The notes beneath the pieces were generated by a model. It did no database searches, was not told where the DNA came from, and saw nothing but the letters and a program-made list of their open reading frames with translations. Of a stretch of 64,000 nt of DNA, positions 7,886-53,126 are shown in pieces (the stretch's first letter is position 1; each line of letters begins with the position of its first letter). The stretch covers positions 29,070 through 93,069 of the forward strand of contig JAJZNL010000055.1 of NCBI GenBank assembly GCA_021852345.1. The letters are read 5' to 3'. Origin of the DNA: Actinomycetes bacterium (GTDB lineage: Bacteria; Actinomycetota; Acidimicrobiia; Acidimicrobiales; JABEUL01). A program made the translations under genes and the position numbers.

Positions 7886-9406
7886 TCAATAAGAGTCGTT
7901 GTCACTACTCAATTTCAATAATAACTCTTGAAGTGATTTTGGTTGACTGCTAAACCAAACGCCAAATCCGATAACTCCGTTTTCTTGTTTTATGTGCCTA
8001 ACCACGGTACCTTCAATGTCCAATACACCCGAATCGATGTCGATTTCAGCGTCAATCACATCACCGCATTCATACCAAAAACTGTCAATTTGTGATATTA
8101 ATGCGCCCGTCGTGGAAAGATCAACCAATTTACCTTTTTTATCATTAATTTTTATTGGCAAATCCACAAAGACTCTGTCGGCGGATCGCCTGTTAATAAT
8201 TTTTAATTTATTATATTTGGGCAATAGGAGCTCGATCTGTCCAGTCGATTCACGGTAGGTGCGATCAAGAATTTGAAATGCCCTGGTTGCGGCCGCATCC
8301 CAAGTAAGTTGTGAGGAATGCCTAAGGGCGCCAACTGATAATTGTTTGGACAACTCCCTATCTGTAGTTACCTGTACTAGACATTCAACAAACTGTTCTA
8401 GCGTGTCAAACAAAAACCCTGTCTCTCCGTCTACGACTGCATCCATGTGACCAGGTATTCTTGAAGCCACACTTAAAGTGCCGCAAGCGCCCGCCTCTGT
8501 TAGAGTCATACCCCAACCTTCTCTCATGGATGCTGAAACTACAGCCCACGCTCTTCTGTAGTAGCTTACAAGTTGGGAATCTGATATTTTACCAGCCAAC
8601 TTGCACCACGAAGAAGCATCGAGCTCATCAATAAGTTTATAAAGATCCGGTTTTGCGGCTCCCTCGCCAGCTATAACTAATTGCGCATTAGGTACTCGCT
8701 TACGCAGTTGATTAACCGCATTTATAACCCAATCATATCTTTTAACTTCAACAAGTCTTCCGACGGCAAAAATCAAAGGGTACTCAGACTTTTGACCCTG
8801 CGGGCGGAACCGTGAATTAACACCTGGGTGAACCACGTTGACATGATAATCCGGCCAACCCAGCAGATCAATGACTTCATCTGCCGAACTAGTTGACGGT
8901 GTGATTACCCTGGTATTTCTATAAAATTTGGGTGCAACTTTTTTCTCAAAATATGCCCCAACGTCGGCAAGCCCTATGGGTAGTACAGAACGCCAAAGTG
9001 CCTTTTCGTGTACATGGTGCAATATGACAACTCTCGGCCCCTTTGACCAGATCGGCGACAAGAATGGCATGCCGTTCCAAATCTCAACCAAAACATCGGC
9101 TTCAGGCATTCTTCCAATTAATCCGTCGATAACTGTTTGCCCAAAAACGCTGTATTTACTGGATTTACGAATAATCTTGTATCCGTCTCTCATCCCAACG
9201 GAATCATTATTGTCGGTGCTGGCGGTTCTCATAGTAACTTCCAGACCGGCCTCAGCCCACCTTTTTGCTATTTCATGTGCGTGAATTTCAGAGCCGCCGG
9301 CGGTAACATCTTCTAAGTCACGCCAAGCTACGATCGTAATTTTTCTTATACTCGACTGCTCTACCAGGTCTTTCAAAGACACCGGTTCAAACTTTTCCTT
9401 GGTCAA
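7886..9406 (-). CDS. GT4-family glycosyltransferase fused to a C-terminal PilZ (c-di-GMP-binding) domain
   Basis: GT-B/GT4 features: GGSEIHAHEIAKRW and the EX7E motif REGWGMTLTE (E296-E304). The last ~100 aa carry RRSADR (residues 406-411, nt 8174-8191) and DLSTTG (residues 429-434), i.e. canonical RxxxR and DxSxxG. TTG start. Confidence 0.8.
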   Translation of the reverse strand: MTKEKFEPVSLKDLVEQSSIRKITIVAWRDLEDVTAGGSEIHAHEIAKRWAEAGLEVTMRTASTDNNDSVGMRDGYKIIRKSSKYSVFGQTVIDGLIGRMPEADVLVEIWNGMPFLSPIWSKGPRVVILHHVHEKALWRSVLPIGLADVGAYFEKKVAPKFYRNTRVITPSTSSADEVIDLLGWPDYHVNVVHPGVNSRFRPQGQKSEYPLIFAVGRLVEVKRYDWVINAVNQLRKRVPNAQLVIAGEGAAKPDLYKLIDELDASSWCKLAGKISDSQLVSYYRRAWAVVSASMREGWGMTLTEAGACGTLSVASRIPGHMDAVVDGETGFLFDTLEQFVECLVQVTTDRELSKQLSVGALRHSSQLTWDAAATRAFQILDRTYRESTGQIELLLPKYNKLKIINRRSADRVFVDLPIKINDKKGKLVDLSTTGALISQIDSFWYECGDVIDAEIDIDSGVLDIEGTVVRHIKQENGVIGFGVWFSSQPKSLQELLLKLSSDNDSY

Positions 9407-9586: not shown

Positions 9587-10552
9587 TCAAAAATCGATTT
9601 GTCGTAAAATTTTAAGCGCGAGGCCGTCCAAAATATCGCTTTCTAAAACATGACAACTTTTAATGCCAAACTTTTGCAACGCCACCAGAAGTATTAACGC
9701 CCCGGCAACTATTACTTCAGCCCTTCCCACTTCGAGTCCCGAAAGTTCACGGCGCTTACTAAGTGGCAATTCGGCTAAGTATTGGAGCGTGGCTTCGATT
9801 TGATCCAAGGTCAACTCCTTTAAATGGACACCTTGTTTACTGTACTCCTTTATGCCATTGGCAACCATATACAAACTGATAGCGGTACCAGCTACGGCAT
9901 AAACTCTTTCGATTTGTAAATTTTGATATCTAGAGCAAACTACGGTGAACAAATTTGATACGTATTTAAACGCTTTTTCTAAGTCGTTTCTATCGACAGG
10001 ATCAGACTTAAAAAATCTTTCGGTAAGTCTTACACATCCAATATCAATTGAGCCACCGAGTGCATTTGAAACAAATTTGCCGGCTTCATAATTCGAATTT
10101 AAATAGTCAAGTTGAAGACCACTTATAACCTCTGTCGAACCGCCACCGATATCTATAACAACAACTCGCTCTTTAGTTGATTCCAAACCCGACATTGCCC
10201 CTTTAAAACTTAATACCGCTTCTTTGTATCCGCTTAATAGCATCGGCGTTACTCCAAATAGATCGCGAACGGCTTTAATAAAGTATTGAGAATTCTTTGA
10301 ATCCCTAACCGCAGATGTTGCAATCAGCCCCCATTCAGTCACGTTAAAACTTTGACCTATTTCAAAATAATCCTTTAAAACCTTTAAGGTTCGGCTGACC
10401 GCATCTTCATCTAAATTTTTTTCTTTGTCTACGTTTTGGCCCAATCTGGTGACCCTGGAATCTCTATAAATTTGATTTTTGTCATCGTCAATTATAAGCA
10501 GTCGAGTCGAGTTTGTTCCACAATCGATGGCCCCGATAATCTTATTCATCAT
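9587..10552 (-). CDS. ppx: Exopolyphosphatase, Ppx/GppA family
   Basis: AIDCGTNSTRLLI and VIDIGGGSTEV ASKHA phosphate-binding motifs. 4 nt overlap with the DUF501 gene. Confidence 0.9.
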   Translation of the reverse strand: MMNKIIGAIDCGTNSTRLLIIDDDKNQIYRDSRVTRLGQNVDKEKNLDEDAVSRTLKVLKDYFEIGQSFNVTEWGLIATSAVRDSKNSQYFIKAVRDLFGVTPMLLSGYKEAVLSFKGAMSGLESTKERVVVIDIGGGSTEVISGLQLDYLNSNYEAGKFVSNALGGSIDIGCVRLTERFFKSDPVDRNDLEKAFKYVSNLFTVVCSRYQNLQIERVYAVAGTAISLYMVANGIKEYSKQGVHLKELTLDQIEATLQYLAELPLSKRRELSGLEVGRAEVIVAGALILLVALQKFGIKSCHVLESDILDGLALKILRQIDF

Positions 10553-11046
10553 AGTTCGCTTTCGTATTCATCGATATTTAACTTACACGTACCAGCCACC
10601 CAACTCCCCACAGCATCCTGTCTTGTTGCCAGAAAATTGGCTAAATGGGCATGTAGACATTTTAGTCCCCGCCCAGTTCCCCCAACACCGCCTTGAGGCA
10701 TTAATCCCGCATAATTTTTGGGAAGAAGTTCATGTCTCATTGCCGAATATCTTTTATGAATTTCATCGATTTCGGTTTCGTTAAACAGCCGTTCCACAAA
10801 CTTCAAACCAAATTCAGCTTCAATTCTGGACACTAACTTTGACTCTTTTTTACCCAACAACCAAAAAAGTGTCGGCATCGGAACCCCGCTATTTAAAATA
10901 GGGTAGTTTGCAATTACAACAATACCTTTTGTGGTTCTATTTCTAACTGTGACTTTAAAGGGTCCCGAAGGCGGGCGTTTCAAAAGTTTTTCTACTTCCA
11001 AAAAATCGGATTCGTCAAAACCGAAATCATCGATTGACTTAATCAA
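10549..11046 (-). CDS. DUF501 domain protein
   Basis: 165 aa with the GTGRGLKCLHAHLA motif. Sits directly upstream of ppx, as in actinobacterial eno-ftsB-DUF501-ppx loci. TTG start. Confidence 0.75.
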   Translation of the reverse strand: MIKSIDDFGFDESDFLEVEKLLKRPPSGPFKVTVRNRTTKGIVVIANYPILNSGVPMPTLFWLLGKKESKLVSRIEAEFGLKFVERLFNETEIDEIHKRYSAMRHELLPKNYAGLMPQGGVGGTGRGLKCLHAHLANFLATRQDAVGSWVAGTCKLNIDEYESEL

Positions 11047-11048
11047 TT

Positions 11049-13022
11049 TTAGGGACTCTTTGTCTTTAGTATCCGTCTAATGATCAGAAGTAGAATAACG
11101 CCAACTGAAGGTATAATTATTGGCTTAAGACGACTTTTTAATGGAGATGAGACCAAGTCCAATATATCAATTGGTTCATTCGGTTGACTTTCAATCTTTA
11201 GCTCATCGACACTTGATGCGCTATGAGTCTCTAAATCTCTACCATTCGCTTCTTCGCCGGTTTTAACGGATTCAGTCGAATTAACCGAAGTCTGTGGCAT
11301 TTCTATAATAGATGCCAAATTCTGTAAACCGCTCTCTCCGTTTTCCTCCTTAGAATCTTCGGTAGTTACGAAGGCTTCAGGCGAATTTAGCTGTTCGTTC
11401 GCATTTGATGATTTAAAAATCGGAATTACCTCCCCGTTGGATCCTTGGAGACTCCCGTCAGTTAGAAGATCGCCTTGAGGAATCTGCAATTCAACTATAT
11501 TTTCTTCGGGAACATTTTCTGGGTTTTCATCAATTGGCAAATCCGATTCGAAAAAATCAACTTTATCATCGGCTCTATCGCCGGAATCGACAGAAGACAT
11601 TCCGGGTTCAGAATCTTGAATATCTTCTTGATCATACAACGTTATGTCTTCATCATCGGCCAATAAGGCTTCTACCGCATTAATATCATCTAACTCTTCG
11701 ACTTCGGTGTCTATCTCTTCTGCAGTAAAGTTACCAATGGCAATTTCTCCCAAACTCCCTTCGCCTTCATCCAATTCTGTTTCGATGCTATTTGAAAGTT
11801 TTGACAACTTTTCGTCTGCAGGAGAGCCCTCAATGTCAACCCGATCCGCATTAGAGCCCTGAGTCCTTGAATTGACTTCGTCAATTTCATCGTCCAAATC
11901 TATTTCAGTGGCCAATTTGGAAAGCTTATCAGCAACAATAGGATTTACAATTCCCAAAGCCGATTCATCACTTGTTGCTTCAGAGTTTTGTTTGTATTCT
12001 TGATCTTCAGCCACATCTTCATCTGATTTTATTTCATCGTTCGATTCAGACGGAACCGACGATATCAAATTATTATCGTCATCGTCATTATCTGCTGTTA
12101 CTTTTCCGATTCTGCTTTGCTCCAGATTCGCATTTTGAGATGCCGCTTGACGGGCTTCGTCAATGTCTCTTCTAATGTCTTCAAGTCGTTCTTTTAATGA
12201 ATCAGTCAATTCTAGATTTTGGTCTGGATTATCATCAGAAGTACCCGTCGCCATCGGCAAATTATCATCAGCTAATTCAATCTCCTCAGACGAAAAATTA
12301 AGCCCCAACAATAAATCTCCAGAAGGGTCAGAATTATCCTCTACGACGATTCCATCTTGCCCCTCGATATTTTCAATAGGTAAGCCTTTTTCTTCTTCGT
12401 GGCTTAACTCCAGATTAGGTTCTTCGACTTTACCTTCAACGGCATCAGAATCAATATCAAAAATTTTGTTTTGAATATTTGCTTCCTGTTCGTTTGCTCC
12501 CTCGTTCAGATGATCAGATCCCAACTCAGCGGTTCCTTCAGACCCGTTCATTACGGATTCAATCGGTTGGCCATTCAAGAGATTAGATAAGTTAGAGGCA
12601 AAAATATCTAAAATCTTACCTGAAACATCATCCAAAAGACCACGTCCCAGTTGGGCAACCTTACCTGAAATGGAAAGGTTGGTCGTAACCGTCACCCTGG
12701 TAATGGAATTATCATCAACTATTATCGGTTTCAAGGTTGCATGCACAACAGCTGCAGCTGATCCGGTACCCTTAGATTCTTTGCCGTCAGCTTTTAATAT
12801 AGCAGTATATGTTTTATGGTTTCTGTCCACCCATGTCGCAACGCCCGCATAAGAGGTAACGATTGGACCTACCTTAACTTTAATCGTTCCTTCGTATTCT
12901 CCATTTTTAACACGATCCAACTCCGCTCCGGGAAGACACGGAGCAATGAGCTTCAAGTCGGTTAACACTTCCCATGCTTTTTCTATGGGAACTGGCACCT
13001 TAAATTCGTTAATTAGCTCCAT
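11049..13022 (-). CDS. coxG: CoxG-like SRPBCC protein with a long acidic disordered region and a C-terminal TM anchor
   Basis: Residues 1-150 (nt ~12573-13022) match CoxG/SRPBCC (MELINEFKVPVPIEKAWEVLTDL...ISGKVAQLGRGLLDDVSGKIL). Residues ~150-625 are D/E/S/N-rich low complexity. The C-terminus PIIIPSVGVILLLIIRRILKTKSP is a hydrophobic helix followed by a basic tail. Confidence 0.8.
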   Translation of the reverse strand: MELINEFKVPVPIEKAWEVLTDLKLIAPCLPGAELDRVKNGEYEGTIKVKVGPIVTSYAGVATWVDRNHKTYTAILKADGKESKGTGSAAAVVHATLKPIIVDDNSITRVTVTTNLSISGKVAQLGRGLLDDVSGKILDIFASNLSNLLNGQPIESVMNGSEGTAELGSDHLNEGANEQEANIQNKIFDIDSDAVEGKVEEPNLELSHEEEKGLPIENIEGQDGIVVEDNSDPSGDLLLGLNFSSEEIELADDNLPMATGTSDDNPDQNLELTDSLKERLEDIRRDIDEARQAASQNANLEQSRIGKVTADNDDDDNNLISSVPSESNDEIKSDEDVAEDQEYKQNSEATSDESALGIVNPIVADKLSKLATEIDLDDEIDEVNSRTQGSNADRVDIEGSPADEKLSKLSNSIETELDEGEGSLGEIAIGNFTAEEIDTEVEELDDINAVEALLADDEDITLYDQEDIQDSEPGMSSVDSGDRADDKVDFFESDLPIDENPENVPEENIVELQIPQGDLLTDGSLQGSNGEVIPIFKSSNANEQLNSPEAFVTTEDSKEENGESGLQNLASIIEMPQTSVNSTESVKTGEEANGRDLETHSASSVDELKIESQPNEPIDILDLVSSPLKSRLKPIIIPSVGVILLLIIRRILKTKSP

Positions 13023-13597
13023 TTACTTAAATCTTCTTTCGTATCAATATCCACCGGGCTTCCAGAACCCTTGACTAATGTAACCATATTCGGAAAATCT
13101 GCCATTAGCTGTTTTGCGCCGATATCGCCGGCAGTGGGCAGCTTAAAAAACATCTCCTTTTTAATTTTAATCGGATGACCCACCTTTTGTCCATAGGTAG
13201 TTGCAACGAGAGAAGTACTTTCTTCGTCCAGCACTGCGTTAAATGAATCAATTGTCAGAAAAGGCATATCTGCTAAAGCTACCACGACAGACGAATGGCC
13301 GCTGTTTAAGGCGTAGTGGATCCCTACGTTTAACGATGAAGCCAGTCCCAATTCAGCAGAGTGATTAATTAGAACCGTGAATTCATCGCCGATCAGAGGT
13401 GTCAAGGTATCGTCCTTTAGTATTACAATCCTTTCGTCGCATTGTGTTTCAGAGACCACGTCAAGTATCCATTTGATAAGAGGCTTCCCCTTAAAGTTGG
13501 CCTGAAGCTTATTGGTATTAGGTTTGCCGGCGGCAAAACGCTCAGATTTACCGGCTGCCAGAATTAAAATTGCATTTGACACAGTTAAATAATACAC
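13013..13597 (-). CDS. MobA/MocA-like nucleotidyltransferase (molybdenum cofactor cytidylyl/guanylyl-transferase)
   Basis: ILILAAGKSERF N-terminal NTP-transferase motif and ~190 aa length. GTG start. 10 nt overlap with the coxG-like gene. Confidence 0.75.
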   Translation of the reverse strand: MYYLTVSNAILILAAGKSERFAAGKPNTNKLQANFKGKPLIKWILDVVSETQCDERIVILKDDTLTPLIGDEFTVLINHSAELGLASSLNVGIHYALNSGHSSVVVALADMPFLTIDSFNAVLDEESTSLVATTYGQKVGHPIKIKKEMFFKLPTAGDIGAKQLMADFPNMVTLVKGSGSPVDIDTKEDLSKWS

Positions 13598-13939
13598 GGA
13601 ATTAAAGCACGCCCCTTACCCAAATTATATTAGTAACTTCCCAACAGTTAAATGCGCCTGTATGCCCTAGCTTTCAAACACTGGTTCGGATAGATACAAA
13701 CTCTAAATTATCGCCATATTACAGAGAGCGGCTCTATTGTCTTGTAGTTTTGAAGTTGCTAATTAATCCGCTCGTGAGTAGAAAATGATTTCGACCATTT
13801 TAAATTAAATCGGTCGGAAATTTTATACCAAATTACATCAACCCTACTTTCAGGTGCAAATAACCAATTTGAAACGAAATTCCAAACAATATTTCGGCTA
13901 TCGAAACCGGTATCGAATTATCGACAAGCAAGAAAACTA

Positions 13940-15169
13940 TTAGCGAGCTGTTATAGTTCCAAATGTCGCATTGAGCGGATTACCTGACCTGGAATTTTTT
14001 ACTGCAACGATCTGAGCGATAATCGCAAGAGCAATTTCATTTGAATTGGTAGCTCCTAGATCCAAACCGATCGGAGAAAAAATACGACTCAGCTTTTCTT
14101 GGTCAATACCAAGATCTTTTAACTTTTGGAATCTTTTCTCGGCTGTCACTCTGGATCCGATCGCCCCTACGTAGCCGAAAGGCAAGTCGACTGCAAGTTT
14201 TAATGCTGGTATATCAAATTTCTCATCGTGGCTTAACATGCACAATGAGTCTTTTTCGGAAACGGTATCACGAATTTCAGAGATATAGTCTTCTGGCCAT
14301 TTCAATTCCAGTTCTATCTCTTTGTTAAATCTAGATTCATTTAAAAACATAGGGCGCGGATCAACTACGACGACCCTATAACCCATTTTTAATCCGATCT
14401 CAGATAGAGCAACAGCATGATCTGAAACACCGGCGATAATTAATCTATGAGTTCCTATATAACGATAAAAAAACATGTTGTATTCATTTGCCACGGTTAG
14501 ATCAAAATAGCCGTCACTTTTATTGCCGCCTACTTCGGAATTCATATCATGCCTTAAGAATGTGATGTCATCACTGTCAGATGAGTCTACTGCGACATGG
14601 AAGAATCCCGAAGAAATATTATTGTCACGATAGCCTACAAGAACTGACTTGAACAAATCGTCAACTCCCCCAGCCTGATTTCTAATCCGACCATGGCAGA
14701 CGACAAATTTGGTTTCGCTGCCAATTTCAGATAGTCCATAGATAGAGCCCGTGCTTACATCAATTGCAATATAGGATCGTGAAGCTTTTAGACTATCTTT
14801 TAGAAGGGGCAAAAAATCGTTCCAGTCGGGCATGAAAGCCGTTATATTTGCCGAGCCTCCGCAAGTCAACCCAAAATTAAATGCCTCTTCGTCGGTATAG
14901 GGAAATGTCCCTATATAAGGAGTCCCACTGTTATTGTTCGAAACTTGATCTATTCTTCTTAAAACTTCACCTATAACAGCAGGTTCAACGCATCCACCCG
15001 AAACGGAGCCCAAACTTTCCGAATCTGAATTTACAACCATTATGGATCCAAGCGGCATCGGCGAAGATCCACTAGCCGACACCAATACAGCCATCCCCAC
15101 CTGTTTTGACTCTTGTATCCATTTTTCAACCGTCTGAATCAGTCTATTTGAAACGAAATCTGGATTCAT
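13940..15169 (-). CDS. XdhC/CoxI-family molybdoenzyme maturation protein
   Basis: N-terminal XdhC_CoxI pattern (SSPMPLGSIMVV...LGSVSGGCVE) and a C-terminal Rossmann-like segment (LIIAGVSDHAVALSEIGLKMGYRVVVVDPRP). Confidence 0.8.
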   Translation of the reverse strand: MNPDFVSNRLIQTVEKWIQESKQVGMAVLVSASGSSPMPLGSIMVVNSDSESLGSVSGGCVEPAVIGEVLRRIDQVSNNNSGTPYIGTFPYTDEEAFNFGLTCGGSANITAFMPDWNDFLPLLKDSLKASRSYIAIDVSTGSIYGLSEIGSETKFVVCHGRIRNQAGGVDDLFKSVLVGYRDNNISSGFFHVAVDSSDSDDITFLRHDMNSEVGGNKSDGYFDLTVANEYNMFFYRYIGTHRLIIAGVSDHAVALSEIGLKMGYRVVVVDPRPMFLNESRFNKEIELELKWPEDYISEIRDTVSEKDSLCMLSHDEKFDIPALKLAVDLPFGYVGAIGSRVTAEKRFQKLKDLGIDQEKLSRIFSPIGLDLGATNSNEIALAIIAQIVAVKNSRSGNPLNATFGTITAR

Positions 15170-15213
15170 ATTTAAAACTTCTGTCTAGTTTCTTATAAAT
15201 TTCATAACAGCCA

Positions 15214-16026
15214 TCAAAAGGAATATTTTTCGGCATATTGTTTCATGAAAACCTTCAACAGATGGAGTCTGTAGTTTTTTGTACCATATATGTCCTCCGT
15301 GGGTGAACATTTTGAAGCAACCGCTTGATAGACAGATTCAAAATCTGAATGAAGTTCTTGAATATCAATTCCAACGGACACGGTTGTGGCTGCCATACTG
15401 ATCAAACCCATGCTCAAAGTATCTACAAACCTAGCTACCGCCATTCCCGAGATTGCCCAGTCTTGAGCTCTTTTGGATATCTTAAAGAACTCGGTATCGC
15501 CAGCAGTCAAAGGGAATCTTATAGATGCTAATATTTCATCTTCACCCAAAGCAGTTTCCAAAAATCCATGATAAAATTCACTCGATGAAATTTCCCTAAT
15601 TCCATTTTTGCTTATAACAACGGCGGTGCCTCGTAAGGCCACAAAACACCCCGCTAGATCAGAAGCCGGATCCCCGTGAGATATTGCCCCTCCGATTGTA
15701 CCGCGATGTCGTATTTGAGGATCACCTATCTGATTTGCTACATTTGCCAAAAGTGGTACGTTAGTGACTATCTCATCATACTTACCCAAGTCACAGTGAC
15801 GAACCATCGAACCAATCTCTATAGAGTCATTGACAATTCTTACTACTTTAAATGCACGAATATCTGATATGTCGACCAATTGGTCGAAACTGGTCAAACC
15901 CATTTTCATTAAAGGTATCAATGACTGACCGCCAGCGATTATCTTTGTATCGAACTTCTGCGACATTGCCTCCGTCAAGTCCTCTACGGTTTTAGGTTTT
16001 ATGTATTTGTATTCGTTTAAAATCAT
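15214..16026 (-). CDS. coxM: FAD-binding medium subunit of a xanthine dehydrogenase/CO dehydrogenase-family enzyme
   Basis: IIAGGQSLIPLMK FAD-binding motif, 270 aa. Confidence 0.85.
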   Translation of the reverse strand: MILNEYKYIKPKTVEDLTEAMSQKFDTKIIAGGQSLIPLMKMGLTSFDQLVDISDIRAFKVVRIVNDSIEIGSMVRHCDLGKYDEIVTNVPLLANVANQIGDPQIRHRGTIGGAISHGDPASDLAGCFVALRGTAVVISKNGIREISSSEFYHGFLETALGEDEILASIRFPLTAGDTEFFKISKRAQDWAISGMAVARFVDTLSMGLISMAATTVSVGIDIQELHSDFESVYQAVASKCSPTEDIYGTKNYRLHLLKVFMKQYAEKYSF

Positions 16027-16044
16027 CTAACGGCGCTTGTAAAG

Positions 16045-16533
16045 TTAATCGTCTTTTTGAGCTATCATCATATCTTGGGCCAATTCAACTGCGGCAACAA
16101 TATTGTGATAACCGGTGCATCTGCACAGGTTCCCCTCTAGACCCTGTCGAATCTCATCTTCTGATAGCGTTCGACCCGTAGTATTGTTTGCCAACATCGA
16201 AACAGTCGCCATGATCATCCCAGAGGTACAAAATCCGCACTGCAATCCATGAGTTTGTCCAAATGCCTTTACGACTGGATGAAGTTGCCCTCCCACAGGG
16301 TTCAATCCTTCCATGGTCGTTACATCTTTTTGATCGGCCTGGACGGTCAATACCGTACAAGCCTTTACAGATTCACCGTCCAGCAATACGGTGCAGGCAC
16401 CGCAAGTGGTGGTGTCACAGCCAACGTTGGCAGCCTTTAAACCCGCTATATCCCTAATGAAATCCACCAGTAGCATGCTGGTATCGACTTCGGCATCATA
16501 TTTTTTTTGATTGACAATAATTGAAACTTTCAT
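16045..16533 (-). CDS. coxS: [2Fe-2S] small subunit of a xanthine dehydrogenase/CO dehydrogenase-family enzyme
   Basis: GCDTTTCGACTV and CGFCTSGM cysteine clusters. 4 nt overlap with the large subunit. Confidence 0.9.
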   Translation of the reverse strand: MKVSIIVNQKKYDAEVDTSMLLVDFIRDIAGLKAANVGCDTTTCGACTVLLDGESVKACTVLTVQADQKDVTTMEGLNPVGGQLHPVVKAFGQTHGLQCGFCTSGMIMATVSMLANNTTGRTLSEDEIRQGLEGNLCRCTGYHNIVAAVELAQDMMIAQKDD

Positions 16534-18845
16534 ATCGTATCAACTTCGAGCAAAAAAGGATTTTCGCCTTCATATAAAGCTTTATATATATTAACGGGAG
16601 TTATCGGAATGTTAACATTTAAATCGCCGAACTCTTCTAAGGCGTCGGCCACAGCATTTGCCACGGCTGGTATTATTCCTATCGTTCCAGACTCACCAAT
16701 TCCTTTGGCGCCCAATTCGTTTATTAAAGTGGGAGTTTCCATTAAATTAACGTCAAAATTTGGAAATTCAGTTGCCGAAGGAAAGCCGTAGTCATACAGA
16801 GTAGAAGTCATCAGATTACCGTCTTTATCATATACGACTTCTTCAAAAAGAGCCTCTGCGGCGCCCTGGGCAACTCCTCCGTGCAACTGCCCCATCGCCA
16901 AAACTGGATTTACAATTTTACCGGCATCATCTACGGTTACCACTTTTAATAGCTTAACTTGACAAGTCTTTAAATTAACGCTCACCATTGCCAAATGAGA
17001 TCCAAACGGAAAGGTCGGTCCGTTTGACTTATACTCCGATTCGGCTTTAAGAATTATTCCCGCTTGATCTGCCGACTTAGCAATATCTGCATAACCGTAT
17101 ATCCTGTCGTCGCATTTAAAATTTCCGTCCGATTTTATAAATTCAATTCGTTCAAAAGGAACATTGATATATTGACTTAAAAACTTTTTAATTATCTCCA
17201 CAAGTTGCAAACAAGCACCATTTATCGCAACTCCCGCACTCTGAATCGATCGCGACCCAAACGTACCCACACCAAAAGGAATTAATTTCGTATCACCTTG
17301 CACCATTTCAATTTGATCCAAATCAAATCCGGTTACCTCTTTGGCAATCTGGGAATATGCCGTTTGATGACCCTGTCCATGTGAAAATGTTCCGCACCCA
17401 ATCTCTAAAATCCCGTCTTTTCGCAACTCCGCAGAGCCGTATTCGGTAGCTGGAACTCCGTGAGTTATTTCCACGTAAGAGCTAATTCCGATTCCGATTC
17501 TCGAATCATCCGAAAGCTTGTTGACTTCGTCTTTTTTCACCTTGAGCATCTCTAAGTCACCGATCTGGCAAAGATTGACTAAAGCTTTTTGATAATCTCC
17601 AGAATCATAAACCGCACCGTATTTAGTTTGATATGGAAACTGTTCGGGTTTAATAAAGTTATTGCTCCTAAGTTGGACTTTATCTATGCTAACTTTTCTG
17701 GCATATTTGTCAACAATTCTCTCAATGGCATAGGCCGCCTCAGGTCGCCCCGCCCCTCGATAGGCGACAACGGGATTCGTATTGGTTACAACAGACTTGG
17801 ACTGATATACGACATTTTCTATATCGTAAGTTCCAGAGGTCATAAAGCGAGTGAATATCGGTAAAAAAGCTCCGGTAAGCGGATATGCTCCACAGTCTTG
17901 CAACACATCTAAAAAGTAGTGGGTAAATCTGCCGCTTTTATCTCCCCCAAGTTTTACGCGTTGAACTTGACCTCTGCCGTGCCCTAAGGACATCATGGAC
18001 TCTGATCTGGTTTCAACCCACTTAAGCGTAATGTTACATTTTTTAGCAAAATATGCAACCAAAATCTCCTCGGGGTAAAGCGATATTTTTGCCCCAAAGC
18101 CGCCCCCCACATCGCCTGCAATGACATGCACTTGCTCTTTGTCGACCTTAAGCGCCCGACTTATTGAGTCTTTAGCCCCGTGCGGCGCCTGGGTTGAAAC
18201 ATAAATTTCAAGTCCAGCGTCAATCGGTTTAACCAAAATTGCTCGCCCTTCAAGCGGGCAAGGGGCGACCTTAGGTATTAAGTAAGTTTCTTCTACGACT
18301 ACCTCACAGCCGTCAAAAAACTTCTCTTCGTTAAAATCTTCTTCGGTATTCTTAGAAGCGACATTGCTTTGTGAACCCTCAAAAAGCAAATAGTCGGTAT
18401 GCAAAGCTTCAATCGGGTCTACTACGGCTTTCAGTTTGTCAATTTCAACTTCGATAAATTCGGCAGCTTTTTCCGCTTCGGATTTTGACTTTGCCACGAT
18501 CATGGCCATCGGCTCGCCAACATAGCGGAGCCTACGGGATGGCAACAGTTCTCGAACCATTGCCTGGTCTACTATTTTTGCCGGAATTATTGGATCTAAA
18601 TCCACATCGGCTGAAGTGAATATTTCAATGACGCCGGTCATTTTTTTTGCAGTCGATACGTCGATGGATTTTATAATTCCGCTTGCAACGTATGATCTTA
18701 AAAAATGAACGTGGTATGTATCTTCGAATTCCAAATCGGCAACATAAGTACCGCCCTTTGTTAATAATCTTTTATCTTCCTGTCGGACAAATGAGCTAAA
18801 ATCCGCAGCTGGAATATCCAGCCTCGAAGATACTTCGACTGTCAT
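16530..18845 (-). CDS. coxL: Molybdopterin-binding large subunit, form-II CoxL-like (AYRGAGR)
   Basis: About 770 aa aldehyde oxidase/xanthine dehydrogenase fold. Active-site loop reads VVAYRGAGRPEAAY. The ATG at 18845-18843 overlaps the ftsB-like TGA as ATGA; the track start at 18851 is an in-frame TTG two codons upstream. Confidence 0.85.
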   Translation of the reverse strand: MTVEVSSRLDIPAADFSSFVRQEDKRLLTKGGTYVADLEFEDTYHVHFLRSYVASGIIKSIDVSTAKKMTGVIEIFTSADVDLDPIIPAKIVDQAMVRELLPSRRLRYVGEPMAMIVAKSKSEAEKAAEFIEVEIDKLKAVVDPIEALHTDYLLFEGSQSNVASKNTEEDFNEEKFFDGCEVVVEETYLIPKVAPCPLEGRAILVKPIDAGLEIYVSTQAPHGAKDSISRALKVDKEQVHVIAGDVGGGFGAKISLYPEEILVAYFAKKCNITLKWVETRSESMMSLGHGRGQVQRVKLGGDKSGRFTHYFLDVLQDCGAYPLTGAFLPIFTRFMTSGTYDIENVVYQSKSVVTNTNPVVAYRGAGRPEAAYAIERIVDKYARKVSIDKVQLRSNNFIKPEQFPYQTKYGAVYDSGDYQKALVNLCQIGDLEMLKVKKDEVNKLSDDSRIGIGISSYVEITHGVPATEYGSAELRKDGILEIGCGTFSHGQGHQTAYSQIAKEVTGFDLDQIEMVQGDTKLIPFGVGTFGSRSIQSAGVAINGACLQLVEIIKKFLSQYINVPFERIEFIKSDGNFKCDDRIYGYADIAKSADQAGIILKAESEYKSNGPTFPFGSHLAMVSVNLKTCQVKLLKVVTVDDAGKIVNPVLAMGQLHGGVAQGAAEALFEEVVYDKDGNLMTSTLYDYGFPSATEFPNFDVNLMETPTLINELGAKGIGESGTIGIIPAVANAVADALEEFGDLNVNIPITPVNIYKALYEGENPFLLEVDTI

Positions 18846-19315
18846 TTCCAAAATTCAAGTCTGGATAAAAGCCTTGAGAAGAAGTTTTGGTTGGCATTAG
18901 TTTTCGAAGAACTTGCAACAGATCCGTTGGGACCCAAATGCGTCGGAATAGGCGGAACGGGATTTTGATTGGCATTATTGGGCAAAACCACATAGGGCTG
19001 TTCCCCTTGCTTAACCAAACCATATCTCTGTCTGGCGAGTTTTTCAATGTAAGACGGTGTATTTAGCTGCTGGATTTGCTTATTCAACTGTTGGTTGGAA
19101 GCCTGCAACTGCAATTGGGTGGTCTGAAGCGCTGCCAATGACCTGTTTTCATTGTAGAGCCTGTTGAAAGGAAATTCAAGCCCAAAGAATACGACAATGC
19201 ATAAAAATATAAACAAAAAGACCGGTCGCCTTTTGGTGCGTAGCTTTTTTGTTCGCTTCTTCTTGTGCGATATTCTCTTGCTATTTGCGTTTGTTTTTGT
19301 CGATGCGGTAGTCAT
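18842..19315 (-). CDS. ftsB: Septum formation initiator, FtsB/DivIC family
   Basis: Basic N-terminus, a single TM (VFLFIFLCIVVFFGL), a coiled-coil Q/L-rich segment, then IEKLARQRYGLVKQGE. Directly downstream of eno. Confidence 0.8.
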   Translation of the reverse strand: MTTASTKTNANSKRISHKKKRTKKLRTKRRPVFLFIFLCIVVFFGLEFPFNRLYNENRSLAALQTTQLQLQASNQQLNKQIQQLNTPSYIEKLARQRYGLVKQGEQPYVVLPNNANQNPVPPIPTHLGPNGSVASSSKTNANQNFFSRLLSRLEFWK

Positions 19316-19323
19316 GGATAAAC

Positions 19324-20601
<1,278 letters not shown>

Positions 20602-24798: not shown

Positions 24799-25911
24799 TC
24801 AAACCTTCGTGGCTGTGAAGTTTGTTAAATAAAAATAATCCTGACTGCTGCCGTTTACAGTTTGTTTAACAGTTGATACTGTTGCACTGACAGAATAGAT
24901 TCCACCAGCTAAACCTAATTCAGCCTGCATATTCATGGAACTCACATTGCTTCCCGTGCCTGCAATCGTAACTATCATTGCCTTATAGTATCCCGAAACA
25001 GAGTCCCCGTTAAACTGCGAGGGATAGGCCACGTTTTTCGAAAAATCGGCAAACCAACTGGAATTTGAATACTTTAGAGAATCAATAATTCCAAACCAAA
25101 TTTCCAGGGCGCTAGCTTCATAATTCATTGGAGCATTTGTTTGCAAAAAAGTCGGATTTAAATTTCCGCTAGTTAGCATCTCGCCCATCGGTTGAGTATT
25201 GTTAGTCAAGCTCAAGCCCAAATTTGACAGAGCTGGCGGTATGTTCACGTTCGGAGCTGGCGGAAAGTTTGGGATTACCAACTGTTTTAAACTTGGTTGC
25301 GTTTTGACAACCTGAGTATCCACCAGCAGCCTTGTGTTAGTATAAGCCAGAGTATTAACTGGCCAACATGTTTCTAAGATTGTTCCGTTGTAAGGCAGGT
25401 CATAAACGGTCGTACTGGTAGTAACTACCTGTGAGGTAGTTACCTTTAGTACCGTTTCTGTTTGACAGGGCACGTAATAGTCAACTTCCGCTCCAGCCTT
25501 AAGTTGATTTAAATCCCAAAATTGCGCAACGTCGTGTGCACTCAATTCAGAAGTTCCAGGCTGATTAGGCCAAGCTGTAGATACATTGTGCCCTACCGCA
25601 ACGGCAATGACGCTATCGGAAACGCCGTCTGTAACCGGTGCAATCATCGACAATGAAGGAATTTCCAAAACTCCAACCAACGGTAAATTGCTGTTTGGAA
25701 TGGTGGGTGCGCTACAGCTAGGTGGTTTAGTTACAGTTGTAGTTACTTTAACAGCCACTTTTTTAATGGGTGCAGACCCACCGCCTCCTGTTATCATCGT
25801 TCCGATCAAAATACCGACAACCAACAACAGTACACCAAAAATAGCAAAATACAATATTGTCTTGTTGGTTATCTTATTCTTTGAACTTGTTTGATTTGGT
25901 GAATCGACCAT
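24799..25911 (-). CDS. Membrane-anchored sortase-like transpeptidase with a ~165 aa C-terminal extension
   Basis: N-terminal TM (ILYFAIFGVLLLVVGILIGTMI). Sortase pattern LEIPSLSMIAPVTDG...GHNVSTAWPNQPGTSELSAHD...LKAGAEV...ILETCWP...NTRLLV, giving His/Cys/Arg candidates. The C-terminal domain is of unknown family. Confidence 0.6.
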   Translation of the reverse strand: MVDSPNQTSSKNKITNKTILYFAIFGVLLLVVGILIGTMITGGGGSAPIKKVAVKVTTTVTKPPSCSAPTIPNSNLPLVGVLEIPSLSMIAPVTDGVSDSVIAVAVGHNVSTAWPNQPGTSELSAHDVAQFWDLNQLKAGAEVDYYVPCQTETVLKVTTSQVVTTSTTVYDLPYNGTILETCWPVNTLAYTNTRLLVDTQVVKTQPSLKQLVIPNFPPAPNVNIPPALSNLGLSLTNNTQPMGEMLTSGNLNPTFLQTNAPMNYEASALEIWFGIIDSLKYSNSSWFADFSKNVAYPSQFNGDSVSGYYKAMIVTIAGTGSNVSSMNMQAELGLAGGIYSVSATVSTVKQTVNGSSQDYFYLTNFTATKV

Positions 25912-32824: not shown

Positions 32825-34456
32825 TTAAAAGATAAATGTAGCGTGATTTGCTAAATCGATTATAAGGTTGGGGAAGATTCCGAGCACTACGACTATACCA
32901 GAAGTCAAGATAACGGCAATCGAACTACCGATTCCAACCCTAAAGTCTTGAGTATCTACGTCTTCGGTTTTAAGATTTTCAACTTTATCTTCTACAAGTA
33001 AAGTTACCCCTTCGTGTTCTTGTCCAATGTCGCCGTCGGCTTTTTGAATCGGCGAGATAGGTGAAAGCGACGAGCTGAAAAGTCGATCTGGTATTATCAT
33101 TTCCTCATCTGGCTTTGAATAGCAAGCGATTACAACGCGTAAATAGTAGACTGCGCTGATAACTGAACTGACGATTGCGACAACCACCAAACTGTAGGCC
33201 CCAGGTCCGCCGCTTCTAGCTAAAGCTTCAAATACCGAAAGCTTAGCGATGAATCCGACGGTTCCAGGAATGCCGGCCTGTCCAAACAACAAAACAGCAA
33301 AACCCAAGATTAGATACGGATGCTTTTTGGCCAAACCTCTGTAGTTTCTAATATCGTGATTTTGATCACCTTTGCTACCCAAAATGGTGACGACGGAAAA
33401 TACACCCGTTGCAATAAAACTGTACGCAATCAGATATACAAAACTTGCACTGACTCCGACTTGAGTCGCAGCTACCAAACCAAGCAATATGAATCCACTG
33501 TGATTAATCGCCGAATATGCCAGCATTCTTTTCACATTGGACTGGACCAATCCGCCAAATGCTCCCACCAAAAGCGATGCCACAGCAAGAATATAGATTA
33601 TCGGTTGCCAATCAGCTTTGTAGCTCACCAAAGCGGTCATCAAAATTCTTAAAAGCGCTGCGAATCCTCCAATTTTAGCAATCGACGACATTAGCGTAAC
33701 CGACGGACTTGGTGCGCCCTGGTACACATCGGGCGACCATACATGAAACGGTACCGCCGCCACCTTAAATCCGAGACCGGCAATTACCAAAACCATTCCG
33801 ATTATCAACAATCCGTTGTGCGTATAGTAAGAGGTGGCAAAAAATGAAGCGATCTGACCTAAGTTCGTAGTTCCCGTCGATCCGTACACAAACGCACTAC
33901 CGTAGATGAATATCGCAGATGCAAATCCTCCCAATACCAAGTACTTTAAAGCGGCTTCGCCACTTTGAATACGCTTGGTATCTAAAGCCGCCAAGACATA
34001 CAGTGAAATAGACATGATTTCAAGACCCAGAAATATCATTATAAGGTCATTTGCGGCAGCCATAAATTGAGCACCGGATCCGGCCAACAACATAAGCGCA
34101 AAAATCTCAGGACCAGACCAATTCTCCCGGTCGACAAAATTTTGAGTAAGAAACGCTGCTATGATCACACAAGCAGAAACCAAAATAGCCGCCAAAACAG
34201 AAAATCCGTCAATGGCCAAGACTTTATCGATAACCAAATGAGCCCCAGATCTTAAAACGTCATGGTAGTTTTTAATCGAAAATCCGATAGAAGCAATACC
34301 GGCCAATACGGTTATCCCCGTATACACTTTAGACGTAATCCTATTTCTAGTAACCGAAGTCATTGCCAACATGACTAAAGCTCCTACAATCAAACATATC
34401 TCCGGCAATATGGAAAAGTAGGAAATCTTAGGAAGTAAAAGCTGTGTGGCGATCAT
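32825..34456 (-). CDS. nuoN: NADH-quinone oxidoreductase subunit N
   Basis: 543 aa polytopic antiporter-like subunit, last gene of the nuo operon. About 55 aa acidic insertion before the final helix. Confidence 0.9.
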   Translation of the reverse strand: MIATQLLLPKISYFSILPEICLIVGALVMLAMTSVTRNRITSKVYTGITVLAGIASIGFSIKNYHDVLRSGAHLVIDKVLAIDGFSVLAAILVSACVIIAAFLTQNFVDRENWSGPEIFALMLLAGSGAQFMAAANDLIMIFLGLEIMSISLYVLAALDTKRIQSGEAALKYLVLGGFASAIFIYGSAFVYGSTGTTNLGQIASFFATSYYTHNGLLIIGMVLVIAGLGFKVAAVPFHVWSPDVYQGAPSPSVTLMSSIAKIGGFAALLRILMTALVSYKADWQPIIYILAVASLLVGAFGGLVQSNVKRMLAYSAINHSGFILLGLVAATQVGVSASFVYLIAYSFIATGVFSVVTILGSKGDQNHDIRNYRGLAKKHPYLILGFAVLLFGQAGIPGTVGFIAKLSVFEALARSGGPGAYSLVVVAIVSSVISAVYYLRVVIACYSKPDEEMIIPDRLFSSSLSPISPIQKADGDIGQEHEGVTLLVEDKVENLKTEDVDTQDFRVGIGSSIAVILTSGIVVVLGIFPNLIIDLANHATFIF

Positions 34457-36120
34457 TTAACGCTCCCCGTTTTCATTTGTAGATTAGTTTCATTAGAGGT
34501 ACTCTTTGCGGCGTATAACCATCTTGAAGTCGGTGCGCCAGGACGGTAAAGTTCAGTCGCATTCAAATTTGAATGTTTGTTTTTTGAAGCCGCAGAACCG
34601 CTCTTATAGGACGCCGCATAGGCAGGTTGTTTAACAATATGATTGGCCTGTTGAACATGATGCACCAACAAATTGACCGACGGAGAAATCTTGTTTAGCA
34701 TGGTGGAAGGAAAAATACCGATAAAAAATATCAGAATAATTAACGGCGCGATATAAAGCTTCTCTTTCATCGTCATATCTTTTATAACTGAGTGACTCTC
34801 TTCAGCCTTGCGGTGAAACGCTCGTTGGTATGCCCACAACAAGTAAACCGCCGACAGAATTACGCCCCCTAAGGCAACTACGGCCCACCATCTGTGTCCG
34901 ATAAACGTACCAGAAAGTATTAGAAATTCACCGATAAAACCATTGGTTCCAGGCAGTCCCAAAGATGCCAGTATGACAACTATCATCGCGCCCGACAGTA
35001 CCGGAGCAGCCTTTTGAAGACCGGAAAGTTTTGAAATATCTATTGTCTTGGTTCGTTCCAAAATCATACCGATTATCAAAAACATTGCAGCTGTCAAAAT
35101 ACCGTGATTAAACATCTGTAAGATGGCACCGTTCATGGCAATTGTCGAAAAGGCAAAAATCCCGATTGCCACAAAGCCCAAATGTGACAAAGATGAAAAT
35201 GCGACTAATCTCTTAAAGTCTCTTTGAACAGCAGCCACTATGGCTCCGTAGATAATTCCAATAACACCCAACGTTAACAATATTGGCGCCAACCGATAAC
35301 TGGCTTGCGGGAAAAAATTAAGATCAAATCTCAATAAACCGTAAGTGCCCAATTTGGCCATAATGGATGCCAATGAAATCGAACCAGATGTCGGGGCCTC
35401 CGAATAAGCTTTAGGAGACCAGGTATGAAACGGAAAGATCGGAGTCTTGATTACAAAGGCTGCCGAAAATCCTAAAAATAGCAAAACTTGACTGGCGTAG
35501 CTAAGTTTTGTATGTGCCAACTTTGTAATATCGAATGTGAAAACGCCTGTCTGACTATGATGAATCACAACAAGAATAACCATAGCAGCGAATAAAAATG
35601 CCGAACCAAACAGCGTATATAAAAAGAATTTTAATGCCGCCTTACTGCGCTCTTTGCCGCCCCATCCAATGATTAGAAAATAAGCAGGAATCAACGTAAG
35701 TTCAAAGAACAAAAAGAAACCGAACAGATCCATTGATAGAAATGAACCGAAACAAGCTCCTTCCAGAATCAACAACCAAGCCGAGTAAGTATTGTTCTTT
35801 GTCTTGTCCCCAGTAGCTATTAATATAATCGGGAAGATTAAGGCAACCATTTCCATTAGAAACAAGGAAATTCCGTCCACTCCGAAGTGCCATCCAATCC
35901 CCAAAGAAGATACCCAGCTGTGATTTGTCACAAACTGATAACCCGCATCTCCGGTTTTAAAGAGCAACATGACAATCAATGCCAATACCCCTGAAACTAC
36001 TGACACACCGAGCGCCAGGTATTTGGCTAATTTGTCAACAGGCACAAATGCCAACAAGACTCCGCCGATTATCGGCAGCAACACGATAACCGTAAGAAAC
36101 GGAAAACTAGTTTGAGTCAC
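34453..36120 (-). CDS. nuoM: NADH-quinone oxidoreductase subunit M
   Basis: 555 aa antiporter-like subunit. Operon position L-M-N. Hydrophilic C-terminal extension of about 70 aa. Confidence 0.9.
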   Translation of the reverse strand: MTQTSFPFLTVIVLLPIIGGVLLAFVPVDKLAKYLALGVSVVSGVLALIVMLLFKTGDAGYQFVTNHSWVSSLGIGWHFGVDGISLFLMEMVALIFPIILIATGDKTKNNTYSAWLLILEGACFGSFLSMDLFGFFLFFELTLIPAYFLIIGWGGKERSKAALKFFLYTLFGSAFLFAAMVILVVIHHSQTGVFTFDITKLAHTKLSYASQVLLFLGFSAAFVIKTPIFPFHTWSPKAYSEAPTSGSISLASIMAKLGTYGLLRFDLNFFPQASYRLAPILLTLGVIGIIYGAIVAAVQRDFKRLVAFSSLSHLGFVAIGIFAFSTIAMNGAILQMFNHGILTAAMFLIIGMILERTKTIDISKLSGLQKAAPVLSGAMIVVILASLGLPGTNGFIGEFLILSGTFIGHRWWAVVALGGVILSAVYLLWAYQRAFHRKAEESHSVIKDMTMKEKLYIAPLIILIFFIGIFPSTMLNKISPSVNLLVHHVQQANHIVKQPAYAASYKSGSAASKNKHSNLNATELYRPGAPTSRWLYAAKSTSNETNLQMKTGSVK

Positions 36121-38042: not shown

Positions 38043-38348
38043 CTAACCCTTTAGCGAAGACAGATCATCGGCTGTTGCACCCAACCGCTTCCTATATATC
38101 GAAACAATGATTGCAAGTCCGACTACAACCTCAGCTGCGGCAACTACCAATACAAAGAATACGTCCGCCTGTCCTCCAACATCTTTAAGCTTCGAGGCAA
38201 AGGCAACAAAAGTCAGGTTTGACGCATTTAGCATCAATTCGACACACATAAGCATAACCAAAACATTACGTCTGATTAAAAGACCGACGAGGCCTATAGT
38301 AAATAGAACTGCAGCCAATATTAGATAATAATTTAAACCTACTGACAT
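38043..38348 (-). CDS. nuoK: NADH-quinone oxidoreductase subunit K
   Basis: 101 aa, three TM helices, operon position. Confidence 0.9.
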
Positions 38349-45141: not shown

Positions 45142-45168
45142 AATTTAATAACGGAATTTAAAAACGAA

Positions 45169-48156: not shown

Positions 48157-48163
48157 TCTTATC

Positions 48164-49982: not shown

Positions 49983-50141
49983 GCCCGCCCCATAAATGCG
50001 GTATCGGTAAAATGATTACATGAGCCGGTGGCAACGGTAGCTTAGCATCGGCTCTACTTAAGGTCCTGACCTTGTTAGCGACTAAACCGCTCGATTTCAA
50101 ATATTACAATCGCCATCGACTTCTCTAATAAGCTTTATACA

Positions 50142-53089: not shown

Positions 53090-53126
53090 GTTATAGTAAA
53101 GAGGGTTATAGTAAAGTTATAGAAAC
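53090..53126. repeat. Direct repeats GTTATAGTAAAG x2 plus a partial third copy (15 bp period)
   Basis: Read directly at 53090-53101, 53105-53116 and 53116-53126. ATTTACTG also occurs twice, at 53142 and 53162. Confidence 0.6.

Follow-up and report, generated by a model that had tools for sequence, protein, structure and literature searches.

A tail-anchored CoxG protein with a greatly expanded polyanionic linker in low-GC Acidimicrobiales

We analysed a 64,000-nucleotide stretch of DNA from an uncultured actinobacterium of the order Acidimicrobiales (assembly GCA_021852345.1, contig JAJZNL010000055.1, positions 29,070 to 93,069 of the forward strand; called the window below) and concentrated on one gene of its minus strand, coxG. 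The product of this gene combines an N-terminal CoxG/SRPBCC domain with a very long acidic linker and a C-terminal hydrophobic segment. The design of CoxG as a tethered carrier is already known, and what is unusual here is only the length and the polyanionic character of the linker. The parts of the gene are arranged as follows (D/E and K/R are the shares of acidic and basic residues; NCPR, net charge per residue; AF2, AlphaFold2; pLDDT, its per-residue confidence score; dN/dS, the ratio of non-synonymous to synonymous substitution rates).

11049..13022, minus strand: coding sequence of the long CoxG, 657 aa plus stop, ATG start (open reading frame listing)
12573..13022, minus strand: CoxG/SRPBCC ligand-binding domain, aa 1-150 (Pfam, PDB, AF2, Foldseek)
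11205..12572, minus strand: variable polyanionic linker, aa 151-606 (27% D/E, 5.4% K/R, NCPR -0.22)
12114..12209, minus strand: amphipathic helix island, aa 272-303 (LTDSLKERLEDIRRDIDEAR...), conserved in three lineages
11910..11936, minus strand: VADKLSKLA, aa 363-371, first KLSKL copy (alignment island; predicted helix; dN/dS 0.09 for aa 361-420)
11790..11810, minus strand: KLSKLSN, aa 405-411, second KLSKL copy (alignment island; helix in the shallow AF2 run 1)
11478..11504, minus strand: ENIVELQIP, aa 507-515 (alignment island)
11412..11438, minus strand: NGEVIPIFK, aa 529-537 (alignment island)
11301..11318, minus strand: LASIIE, aa 569-574 (alignment island)
11124..11204, minus strand: juxtamembrane module, aa 607-633 (KIESQPNEPIDILDLVSSPLKSRLK), which aligns to short orthologues (pLDDT 67-85)
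11079..11123, minus strand: predicted hydrophobic anchor helix, aa 634-648 (PIIIPSVGVILLLII), from the hydropathy maximum, AF2 helix and homology
11052..11078, minus strand: basic C-terminal tail, aa 649-657 (RRILKTKSP), from the sequence

The window protein is a genuine member of the CoxG family. The Pfam model COXG (PF06240) covers residues 6-148 (E 7.9e-16), and CoxG of M. smegmatis (PDB 8UDS_D) is matched with E 1.2e-33 and 44.6% identity, the alignment beginning at the first residue both of the window protein and of the crystallised cytoplasmic domain. Modelling was done twice: AF2 run 1, with 4 sequences, was too shallow (mean pLDDT 39, domain included), and run 2, with an alignment of 70 sequences, gave pLDDT 87-98 for residues 1-150. 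Foldseek superimposes the modelled domain on 8uds with a template modelling (TM) score of 0.96 and a root-mean-square deviation of 1.1 Å. An earlier reading of the DNA, the first-pass annotation, had placed an SRPBCC domain at residues 1-150, and all these data agree with it. In alignment to M. smegmatis CoxG the lysine clusters KVKVGP and GKE.KG are kept: K48, K50, K81 and K121 align with lysines of that protein and K77 compensates for K79, the five critical lysines being unnumbered in the main text of PMC12202499. No N-terminal signal peptide was found on CoxG.

The open reading frame (ORF) is real and coding along its whole length. Its 657 codons, the 10-nt overlap of its start with the upstream MocA-like gene (13013-13597) and the 2-nt gap between its end and the downstream DUF501 gene (10549-11046) were noted earlier, and the coordinates agree; the overlap with the MocA-like gene recurs across orthologous loci, and this gene is translationally coupled to coxG. 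The identical 657-aa protein is present on 16 public contigs, while further long forms in the database have 657 aa (91% identical), 678 aa and 824 aa. In 11 independent sequences of 3 lineages (2 + 2 + 7) the frame is intact, with no stop and no frameshift after the SRPBCC domain, and the earlier claim that the acidic stretch is truly coding has survived this comparison. The 824-aa form is represented by 7 slightly differing sequences, all exactly 824 aa long and ungapped, with substitutions in the linker only; the 678-aa form was found twice, at the same length; the window protein differs from its 91%-identical orthologue by zero indels.

Purifying selection is evident from the comparison of the window gene with this 91%-identical orthologue, to which all dN/dS values given here refer. 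The ratio is 0 for the CoxG domain (0 non-synonymous and 20 synonymous changes), 0.31 for the linker (65 and 52 differences, respectively) and 0.04 for the C-terminal tail, with values of about 0.1 in the neighbour genes (MocA-like 0.11, Ppx 0.09). Within the linker the extremes by block are 0.09 (aa 361-420) and 0.96 (aa 541-600). It is extremely improbable that two or more genes or a pseudogene have been fused here by a sequencing or assembly error and that only the 150-aa domain is made. Such errors do occur at loci of this kind, as shown by the apparent frameshift or DUF501 read-through in the loci L035 and L067 from long-read metagenome-assembled genomes (MAGs); however, the domain and the last 51 aa of the protein have their homologues at the two termini of shorter relatives, each a single protein, so the stretch between them must read in frame. 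Eleven independent assemblies share uninterrupted frames, dN/dS is below 1, and the ORF listing holds no alternative ORF longer than 103 aa overlapping the coxG region.

The acidic character of the stretch that follows the domain, described earlier as long and rich in D, E, S and N, is borne out by the counts. Residues 151-630 contain 14.8% E, 12.3% D, 10.8% S and 7.7% N, with 130 D/E against 26 K/R and a net charge of about -104. In the charge-hydropathy plot all 60-aa blocks of the linker lie on the disordered side of the boundary, and AF2 gives coil with pLDDT 31-56 over most of the linker (below 50 across most of aa 160-600). When the 51 window ORFs with 150 aa or more are compared, a 100-aa stretch with 37% D/E is unique to coxG, the others reaching at most 26%. 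Since the D/E content of these other 50 ORFs is ordinary, the acidity is not a genome-wide trait, and a “salt-in” acidic proteome was ruled out as its cause. A foreign insertion was ruled out as the source of the linker by its GC content (0.41) and third-position GC content (GC3, 0.33), which are similar to those of the neighbouring genes and indicate a native sequence.

Neither Pfam nor the PDB sequences gave any match to the linker at E<=1, and Foldseek matches are confined to the first ~150 residues, the SRPBCC domain, with none in the linker. Tandem Repeats Finder detected in it only one trivial 15-nt doublet, BLASTP self-comparison of the protein revealed no internal repeat, and the only internal duplication visible in the alignment is the short KLSKL motif. 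The earlier impression of “no obvious repeat” thus stands, apart from the doublet and the KLSKL pair, but that of a featureless low-complexity sequence does not, because seven conserved islands are found across the three long lineages (the juxtamembrane module, from about aa 607, being counted). The most prominent of them, aa 272-303, begins with aa 272-291 (LTDSLKERLEDIRRDIDEAR) and is covered by an AF2 helix at aa 274-304 with pLDDT 84-92, which has the top hydrophobic moment of the linker (0.55) and in which Leu and Ile form a stripe with a spacing of 3-4.

To place the long form among its relatives, we scanned 185,579 species genomes by pattern and obtained 67 loci, mostly from high-GC Acidimicrobiales and in addition from Parafrankia, Conexibacter and Solirubrobacterales. 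The order MocA-CoxG-DUF501-Ppx with CoxL/S/M/XdhC upstream is shared by every long-linker locus and is met with in dozens of loci across Acidimicrobiales, and this recurring gene order makes the loci positional orthologues. The 53 complete short orthologues have 215-312 aa in total and linkers of 40-141 aa (median 72) with about 48% Pro/Ala/Gly and a median net charge of -5. Their linkers are followed by the motif [RK]IES..EP[VI]DLL..AG.PV.KR..P, then by 15-17 hydrophobic residues and usually by 2-11 Arg/Lys. The size of more distant actinobacterial CoxG proteins goes up to 399 aa, their Pro/Ala/Ser-rich linkers being about 230 aa long.

A full-length word-indexed search gave only 4 proteins, since acidic low-complexity words swamped the candidates, and it was supplemented by a domain-only search and an exhaustive profile search. 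The latter (HMMER, 1.84 billion cluster representatives) recovered 4,813 family members at E<=0.001; among the best 150 of these 4,813, only 3 representatives (657, 678 and 824 aa) match the profile end to end, and the other 147 are 149-399 aa long. All long-linker forms come from genomes of 38-43% GC in which the full operon order is kept. Their linkers of 456-650 aa exceed those of the short orthologues 6-9 fold, the window protein being ~7-fold over the median. The comparison of linker length and composition across relatives, proposed in the first-pass annotation, sets mildly acidic linkers of 40-141 aa against polyanionic ones of 456-650 aa, and the long acidic linker occurs only in three lineages of uncultured low-GC Acidimicrobiales that are close relatives of one another.

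Identity among these lineages is 82-90% in the domain but only 28-33% in the alignable linker columns, with 88-210 gapped columns. The bulk properties of the linker are nevertheless held: D+E 24.5-28.4%, K+R 5.4-5.8%, net charge -104 to -123 and NCPR -0.19 to -0.22.

Such a combination of variable sequence and constant composition may be read as neutral bloat, in which slippage and indels in a low-GC lineage inflated the spacer, AT-rich codons (GAT, GAA, AAT, TCT) gave the composition, and the protein works like a short CoxG. The linker length is indeed plastic in the family (40-141 aa in close orthologues, ~230 in other Actinobacteria, 456-650 here), the short linkers are already mildly acidic (median net charge -5), and the indels between the long lineages, the low linker identity and the approach of dN/dS to 1 in two 60-codon blocks are all expected from it. 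We regard this explanation as rather unlikely, because the overall linker dN/dS is 0.31 and falls to 0.09 at aa 361-420, and because seven islands and a high-confidence helix are kept against a background identity of 28-33%. Moreover, the length is fixed within each lineage (7/7 at 824 aa, 2/2 at 678, 2/2 at 657), and ~1.4 kb are kept in otherwise tightly packed operons. AT bias would also raise Lys (AAA/AAG) in the same way as Glu and Asn, whereas K+R remains at 5.4-5.8% while D+E doubles to 25-28%.

The opposite suggestion is that the linker is an active module, which would either fold with its acidic chain and islands onto the lysine-rich portal of the domain, as an electrostatic lid or escort hastening release from membrane and enzyme, or serve as a scaffold for CoxLSM, maturation factors or further CoxG chains (by way of the helix at aa 272-303) and so concentrate the enzyme in a brush-like layer below the membrane. 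The portal face, rich in lysine, has to interact with anionic lipid as well as with an acidic surface of the enzyme (PMC12202499). The domain of the long clade has a net charge of 0 to +1, compared with a median of -4 for 62 short-linker orthologues (usually -10 to -1), and is the least acidic of the recovered orthologues, one +10 outlier aside; an electrostatic interplay of the linker with the lysine-rich face would be compatible with this shift, which is, however, small and confounded by a GC-driven Arg-to-Lys swap. Short hydrophobic motifs in acidic surroundings (ENIVELQIP, NGEVIPIFK, LASIIE), together with the amphipathic helix, would suit binding sites, but the islands other than the helix at aa 274-304 have low pLDDT, and the short-linker orthologues manage without islands. 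We consider an active module of this kind unlikely.

Two peculiarities were observed among the relatives with shorter linkers. In some high-GC actinobacteria the tail-anchored CoxG (365-377 aa; P0210, P0232, P0168, also P0172 and P0234) contains inside its linker a helix-hairpin-helix resembling the C-terminal domain of the RNA polymerase alpha subunit, and Pfam PF03118 is matched in the linkers of the three that were scanned (P0210, P0232, P0168) with E 2e-17 to 3e-11. Such an insertion is unexpected in a membrane-tethered quinone carrier. In several long-read MAGs (L035, L067, L033, L006, L064) the reading frame of the short coxG continues as Arg-rich nonsense sequence or enters that of DUF501; these read-throughs are probably homopolymer frameshift errors in high-GC assemblies, not true fusions.

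At the C-terminus the single hydrophobic segment with a following basic tail, noted earlier, is confirmed: the Kyte-Doolittle value of 2.19 over 19 aa (aa 634-652) is by far the hydropathy peak of the protein, the tail reads RRILKTKSP, and AF2 predicts a helix at aa 620-654 (pLDDT 72-89). The last 51 aa (607-657) represent a conserved module common to the short orthologues, and the anchor is homologous to the C-terminal module in 53/53 complete ones. The juxtamembrane part is modelled by AF2 with short beta bridges, and its motif, [RK]IES..EP[VI]D[LI]L..AG.P[VL].KR..P, is kept from Acidimicrobiales to Conexibacter; the accessible text of the CoxG papers gives no description of its function. 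Some CoxG homologues (P0008, P0011, P0019, P0020, P0025) stop right after the hydrophobic helix (...IIILILVL), which means that the poly-Arg/Lys tail is not obligatory for the family. By analogy with the studied homologues, the helix would be inserted in the cytoplasmic membrane. The first-pass annotation saw in the tail anchor the mark of a special, “hard-wired” CoxG. This idea is not supported: in M. smegmatis CoxG an SRPBCC domain is already joined by a flexible linker to a membrane helix at the C-terminus (Kropp et al., Nat Chem Biol 2025, PMC12202499), its homologue Rv0369c of M. tuberculosis has a C-terminal transmembrane domain (2026 review, PMC13525633), and all 53 short orthologues are anchored as well. 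A tail anchor shared with M. smegmatis CoxG and Rv0369c is the normal state of actinobacterial CoxG.

The same C-terminal segment and basic tail could be taken for a sortase-type sorting signal of an exported surface protein, since a motif, a hydrophobic stretch and a poly-basic tail superficially resemble a cell-wall sorting signal, a sortase-domain gene lies within the window (24799-25911), and the positive-inside rule favours a cytoplasmic basic tail. We find this scarcely credible: besides lacking a signal peptide and starting at the same residue as the crystallised cytoplasmic domain, CoxG contains no LPXTG/LAXTG-like motif, no Tat or Sec signals were found on CoxL, CoxS and CoxM, and the M. 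smegmatis homologue acts in the cytoplasm (PMC12202499). The absence of a CoxG signal peptide, of Tat/Sec signals on CoxL/S/M and of LPXTG in these sequences argues for a cytoplasmic location.

The coxG gene belongs to an operon of the order CoxL-CoxS-CoxM-XdhC-MocA-CoxG, which is also found in relatives. The genes around coxG are listed in the direction of transcription.

19324-20598, minus strand: enolase (gene context)
18842-19315, minus strand: DivIC/FtsB (gene context)
16530..18851, minus strand: CoxL-like molybdopterin subunit with AYRGAGR loop, form II-like (Pfam MoCoBD_1/2)
16045..16533, minus strand: CoxS-like [2Fe-2S] subunit (Pfam Fer2_2)
15214..16026, minus strand: CoxM-like flavin adenine dinucleotide (FAD) subunit, the expected docking partner of CoxG (Pfam FAD_binding_5; docking site from PMC12202499)
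13940..15169, minus strand: XdhC-family maturation factor (Pfam XdhC_CoxI + XdhC_C)
13013..13597, minus strand: MocA-like molybdenum cofactor cytidylyltransferase (Pfam NTP_transf_3; TIGR03310 below cut-off)
10549-11046, minus strand: DUF501 gene (gene context)
9587-10552, minus strand: Ppx/GppA (gene context)

The Pfam matches of the CoxL, CoxS and CoxM genes confirm that coxG stands beside a CoxLSM-type molybdoenzyme. Its identity as a CO dehydrogenase is not supported. The loop AYxCSFR or AYRGAGR separates form I from form II; here CoxL has VVAYRGAGRPE at aa 363 and AY.CSFR is absent from it. CoxL scores 418 bits against TIGR02416 (cut-off 991) and stays under every NCBIfam cut-off, the best being glyceraldehyde dehydrogenase alpha (555 bits against a cut-off of 790). 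No coxD, coxE or coxF occurs in the operon, where CoxM and CoxG are separated by XdhC and the MocA-like gene only. A form I Mo-Cu CO dehydrogenase was rejected on these three grounds, and they make the partner a xanthine-oxidase-family molybdoflavoenzyme.

The sole sizeable gap in this tightly packed operon is the 342 nt between the XdhC and MocA-like genes (13598-13939), in which we found no credible ORF, no Rfam match and only weak conservation against the loci L070 and L005. A promoter-like site in it (13651-13624, minus strand) could provide for separate transcription of MocA-CoxG-DUF501-Ppx; counts of internal promoters and terminators in the operon are at chance level. The CoxLSM-XdhC-MocA-CoxG operon sits between divIC/ftsB and DUF501 (window 10549-20598), and the cluster eno-ftsB-DUF501-ppx is conserved among Actinobacteria. 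The operon-DUF501-Ppx order recurs in high-GC and low-GC Acidimicrobiales, the upstream eno and divIC having been checked at the long-linker loci only (L001/L002, L070).

Outside the operon, a GT4-family glycosyltransferase with a C-terminal PilZ domain (E 2e-7) is encoded at 7886-9406 on the minus strand, and the same fusion follows the operon in L070; it suggests polysaccharide synthesis controlled by cyclic di-GMP. A run of ORFs at 32825-48664 fits a complex I (nuo) operon by size and order, Pfam confirming only NuoJ (38349-39062), the C-terminal part of which is unusually acidic (26% D/E over 100 aa). After this run, within 48984-59165, Pfam recognises the tetrapyrrole genes ALAD, HemD and a tetrapyrrole methylase. 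The window gave no Rfam or tRNA matches for RNA genes. Two further genes were recorded.

24799-25911, minus strand: sortase-domain protein of 370 aa that has a hydrophobic segment near its N-terminus
51400-52749: geranylgeranyl-reductase-like flavoprotein

The nuo-like run, the tetrapyrrole genes and the flavoprotein are consistent with an aerobic, quinone-respiring organism.

The closest studied system is that of M. smegmatis, for which the published model has CoxG ferrying menaquinone between membrane and enzyme FAD site; its lysine-rich face is needed for function and has to touch the membrane as well as an acidic patch at the CoxM/CoxL interface, and coxG genes also accompany family members other than CO dehydrogenases (PMC12202499). 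The window protein shares with M. smegmatis CoxG and Rv0369c the plan of carrier domain, linker and C-terminal helix and the CoxL/M/S-type genes alongside, and with the former the same SRPBCC domain and its lysine clusters. Unlike M. smegmatis CoxG, it has a linker of 456-480 aa with 27% D/E and conserved islands, and unlike in that system its partner is form II-like, lacks operon coxD/E/F and is not a Mo-Cu CO dehydrogenase. The short CoxG proteins of high-GC Acidimicrobiales, Parafrankia and Conexibacter agree with the window protein in position, domain (45-57% identity), juxtamembrane motif, anchor and basic tail; their linkers of 40-141 aa with a charge of about -5 differ from those of the long clade, which carry a charge of -104 to -123 and new islands.

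In Oligotropha (Afipia) carboxidovorans, CoxG is needed for membrane association of the CoxLMS enzyme (Pelzmann et al. 2014, PMC4240915). By description that CoxG has about 200 aa and no long acidic linker, and it serves a true Mo-Cu CO dehydrogenase from a cox cluster with coxD/E/F, which the window operon is without. This is the role of enzyme recruiter on which the first-pass annotation relied; CoxG is now seen as a proposed menaquinone shuttle and no longer as a recruiter only. The principle of membrane recruitment reaches beyond CO dehydrogenases, since the CoxG-like proteins Saci_1119/Saci_2031 of Sulfolobus acidocaldarius bring a soluble quinone-reducing flavoenzyme, glycerol-3-phosphate dehydrogenase, to the membrane (PMC11962113). 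Unlike the window CoxG, these are small archaeal proteins without a long linker.

A comparable plan is known in eukaryotes. The tail-anchored Lam/Aster proteins carry a START-like domain on a disordered tether and ferry sterol over tens of nanometres; they resemble the window protein in having a helix-grip carrier on a long flexible stretch, with a transmembrane anchor at the C-terminus. The kinship is at the level of the fold superfamily only, and Lam/Aster proteins differ in bridging two membranes and in their sterol ligand.

Taken together, it is fairly probable that the gene encodes a tail-anchored CoxG acting as a hydrophobic-ligand carrier (most likely of menaquinone) for the upstream CoxLSM-type enzyme, with a tether that has expanded in one clade. 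Following the M. smegmatis model, the C-terminal helix would fix the protein in the cytoplasmic membrane, and the N-terminal domain would swing on the tether between the membrane, where quinone would be loaded and unloaded, and the FAD site at the CoxM/CoxL interface, where it would be reduced. The putative complex I operon and the geranylgeranyl-reductase-like flavoprotein within the same window provide a respiratory context. The tether would have expanded in place, from ~72 Pro/Ala/Gly-rich residues to 456-650 with 25-28% D/E, the domain, motif and anchor being unchanged. We infer that it most likely serves as a non-sticky spacer repelled by the membrane and nucleic acids. Generic polymer scaling gives an estimated root-mean-square (rms) reach of ~5-7 nm for 72 residues (contour 26 nm) and of ~12-30 nm for 480 residues (contour 173 nm), and this greater reach would keep the carrier, with any enzyme attached to it, in a thick sub-membrane shell, not at the membrane surface. 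In addition, the seven islands, and above all the amphipathic helix at aa 272-303, probably have a function in binding or self-association.

Several points weigh against such a tethered quinone carrier. The hydrophobic core of the anchor has only 15 residues, two prolines included, and its estimated insertion energy is marginal (~0.2 kcal/mol for the 15-mer, +4 for the 19-mer with arginines, on an approximate scale); the basic residues are balanced around the helix (+3 before, +4 after), so the topology is not settled by the positive-inside rule. Two blocks of the linker are near-neutral, with dN/dS 0.68 (aa 181-240) and 0.96 (aa 541-600). The partner, judged by its sequence, is not a bona fide CO dehydrogenase, and quinone shuttling is extrapolated from M. 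smegmatis and from the modelling of homologues outside the CO dehydrogenases in PMC12202499. Finally, by a scaling estimate, a ~3-fold longer reach dilutes the carrier near the membrane ~30-fold, so that, if the shuttle model applies, a long tether brings no obvious benefit.

A stronger proposal is that the polyanionic tether is functional in itself, its charge and its helical or hydrophobic islands either masking and unmasking the lysine-rich quinone portal or gathering enzymes into a sub-membrane brush of 20-30 nm; at present this seems doubtful. If it were true, a simple leash would become a tunable electron-collecting antenna, and the natural linkers of 40-650 aa would form a ready series for relating tether physics to quinone shuttling. 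In other respects the gene, which comes from an uncultured organism, is an ordinary representative of a system already known. For annotators there is also a warning: a marine survey took COG3427 reference sequences at 150-450 aa (PMC13240472), and such a filter would exclude a protein of this length.

The extraction of quinone by CoxG was presented in 2025 as a novel wiring of soluble dehydrogenases into the respiratory chain, in a study that did not deal with the role of the tether (PMC12202499). The clade presented here shows that a tether may be stretched ~7-9 fold and brought to a net charge of about -100 while the domain and anchor remain strictly constrained. It therefore offers a natural extreme for asking whether the length and charge of the tether set the reach, the local concentration and the turnover of the shuttle.

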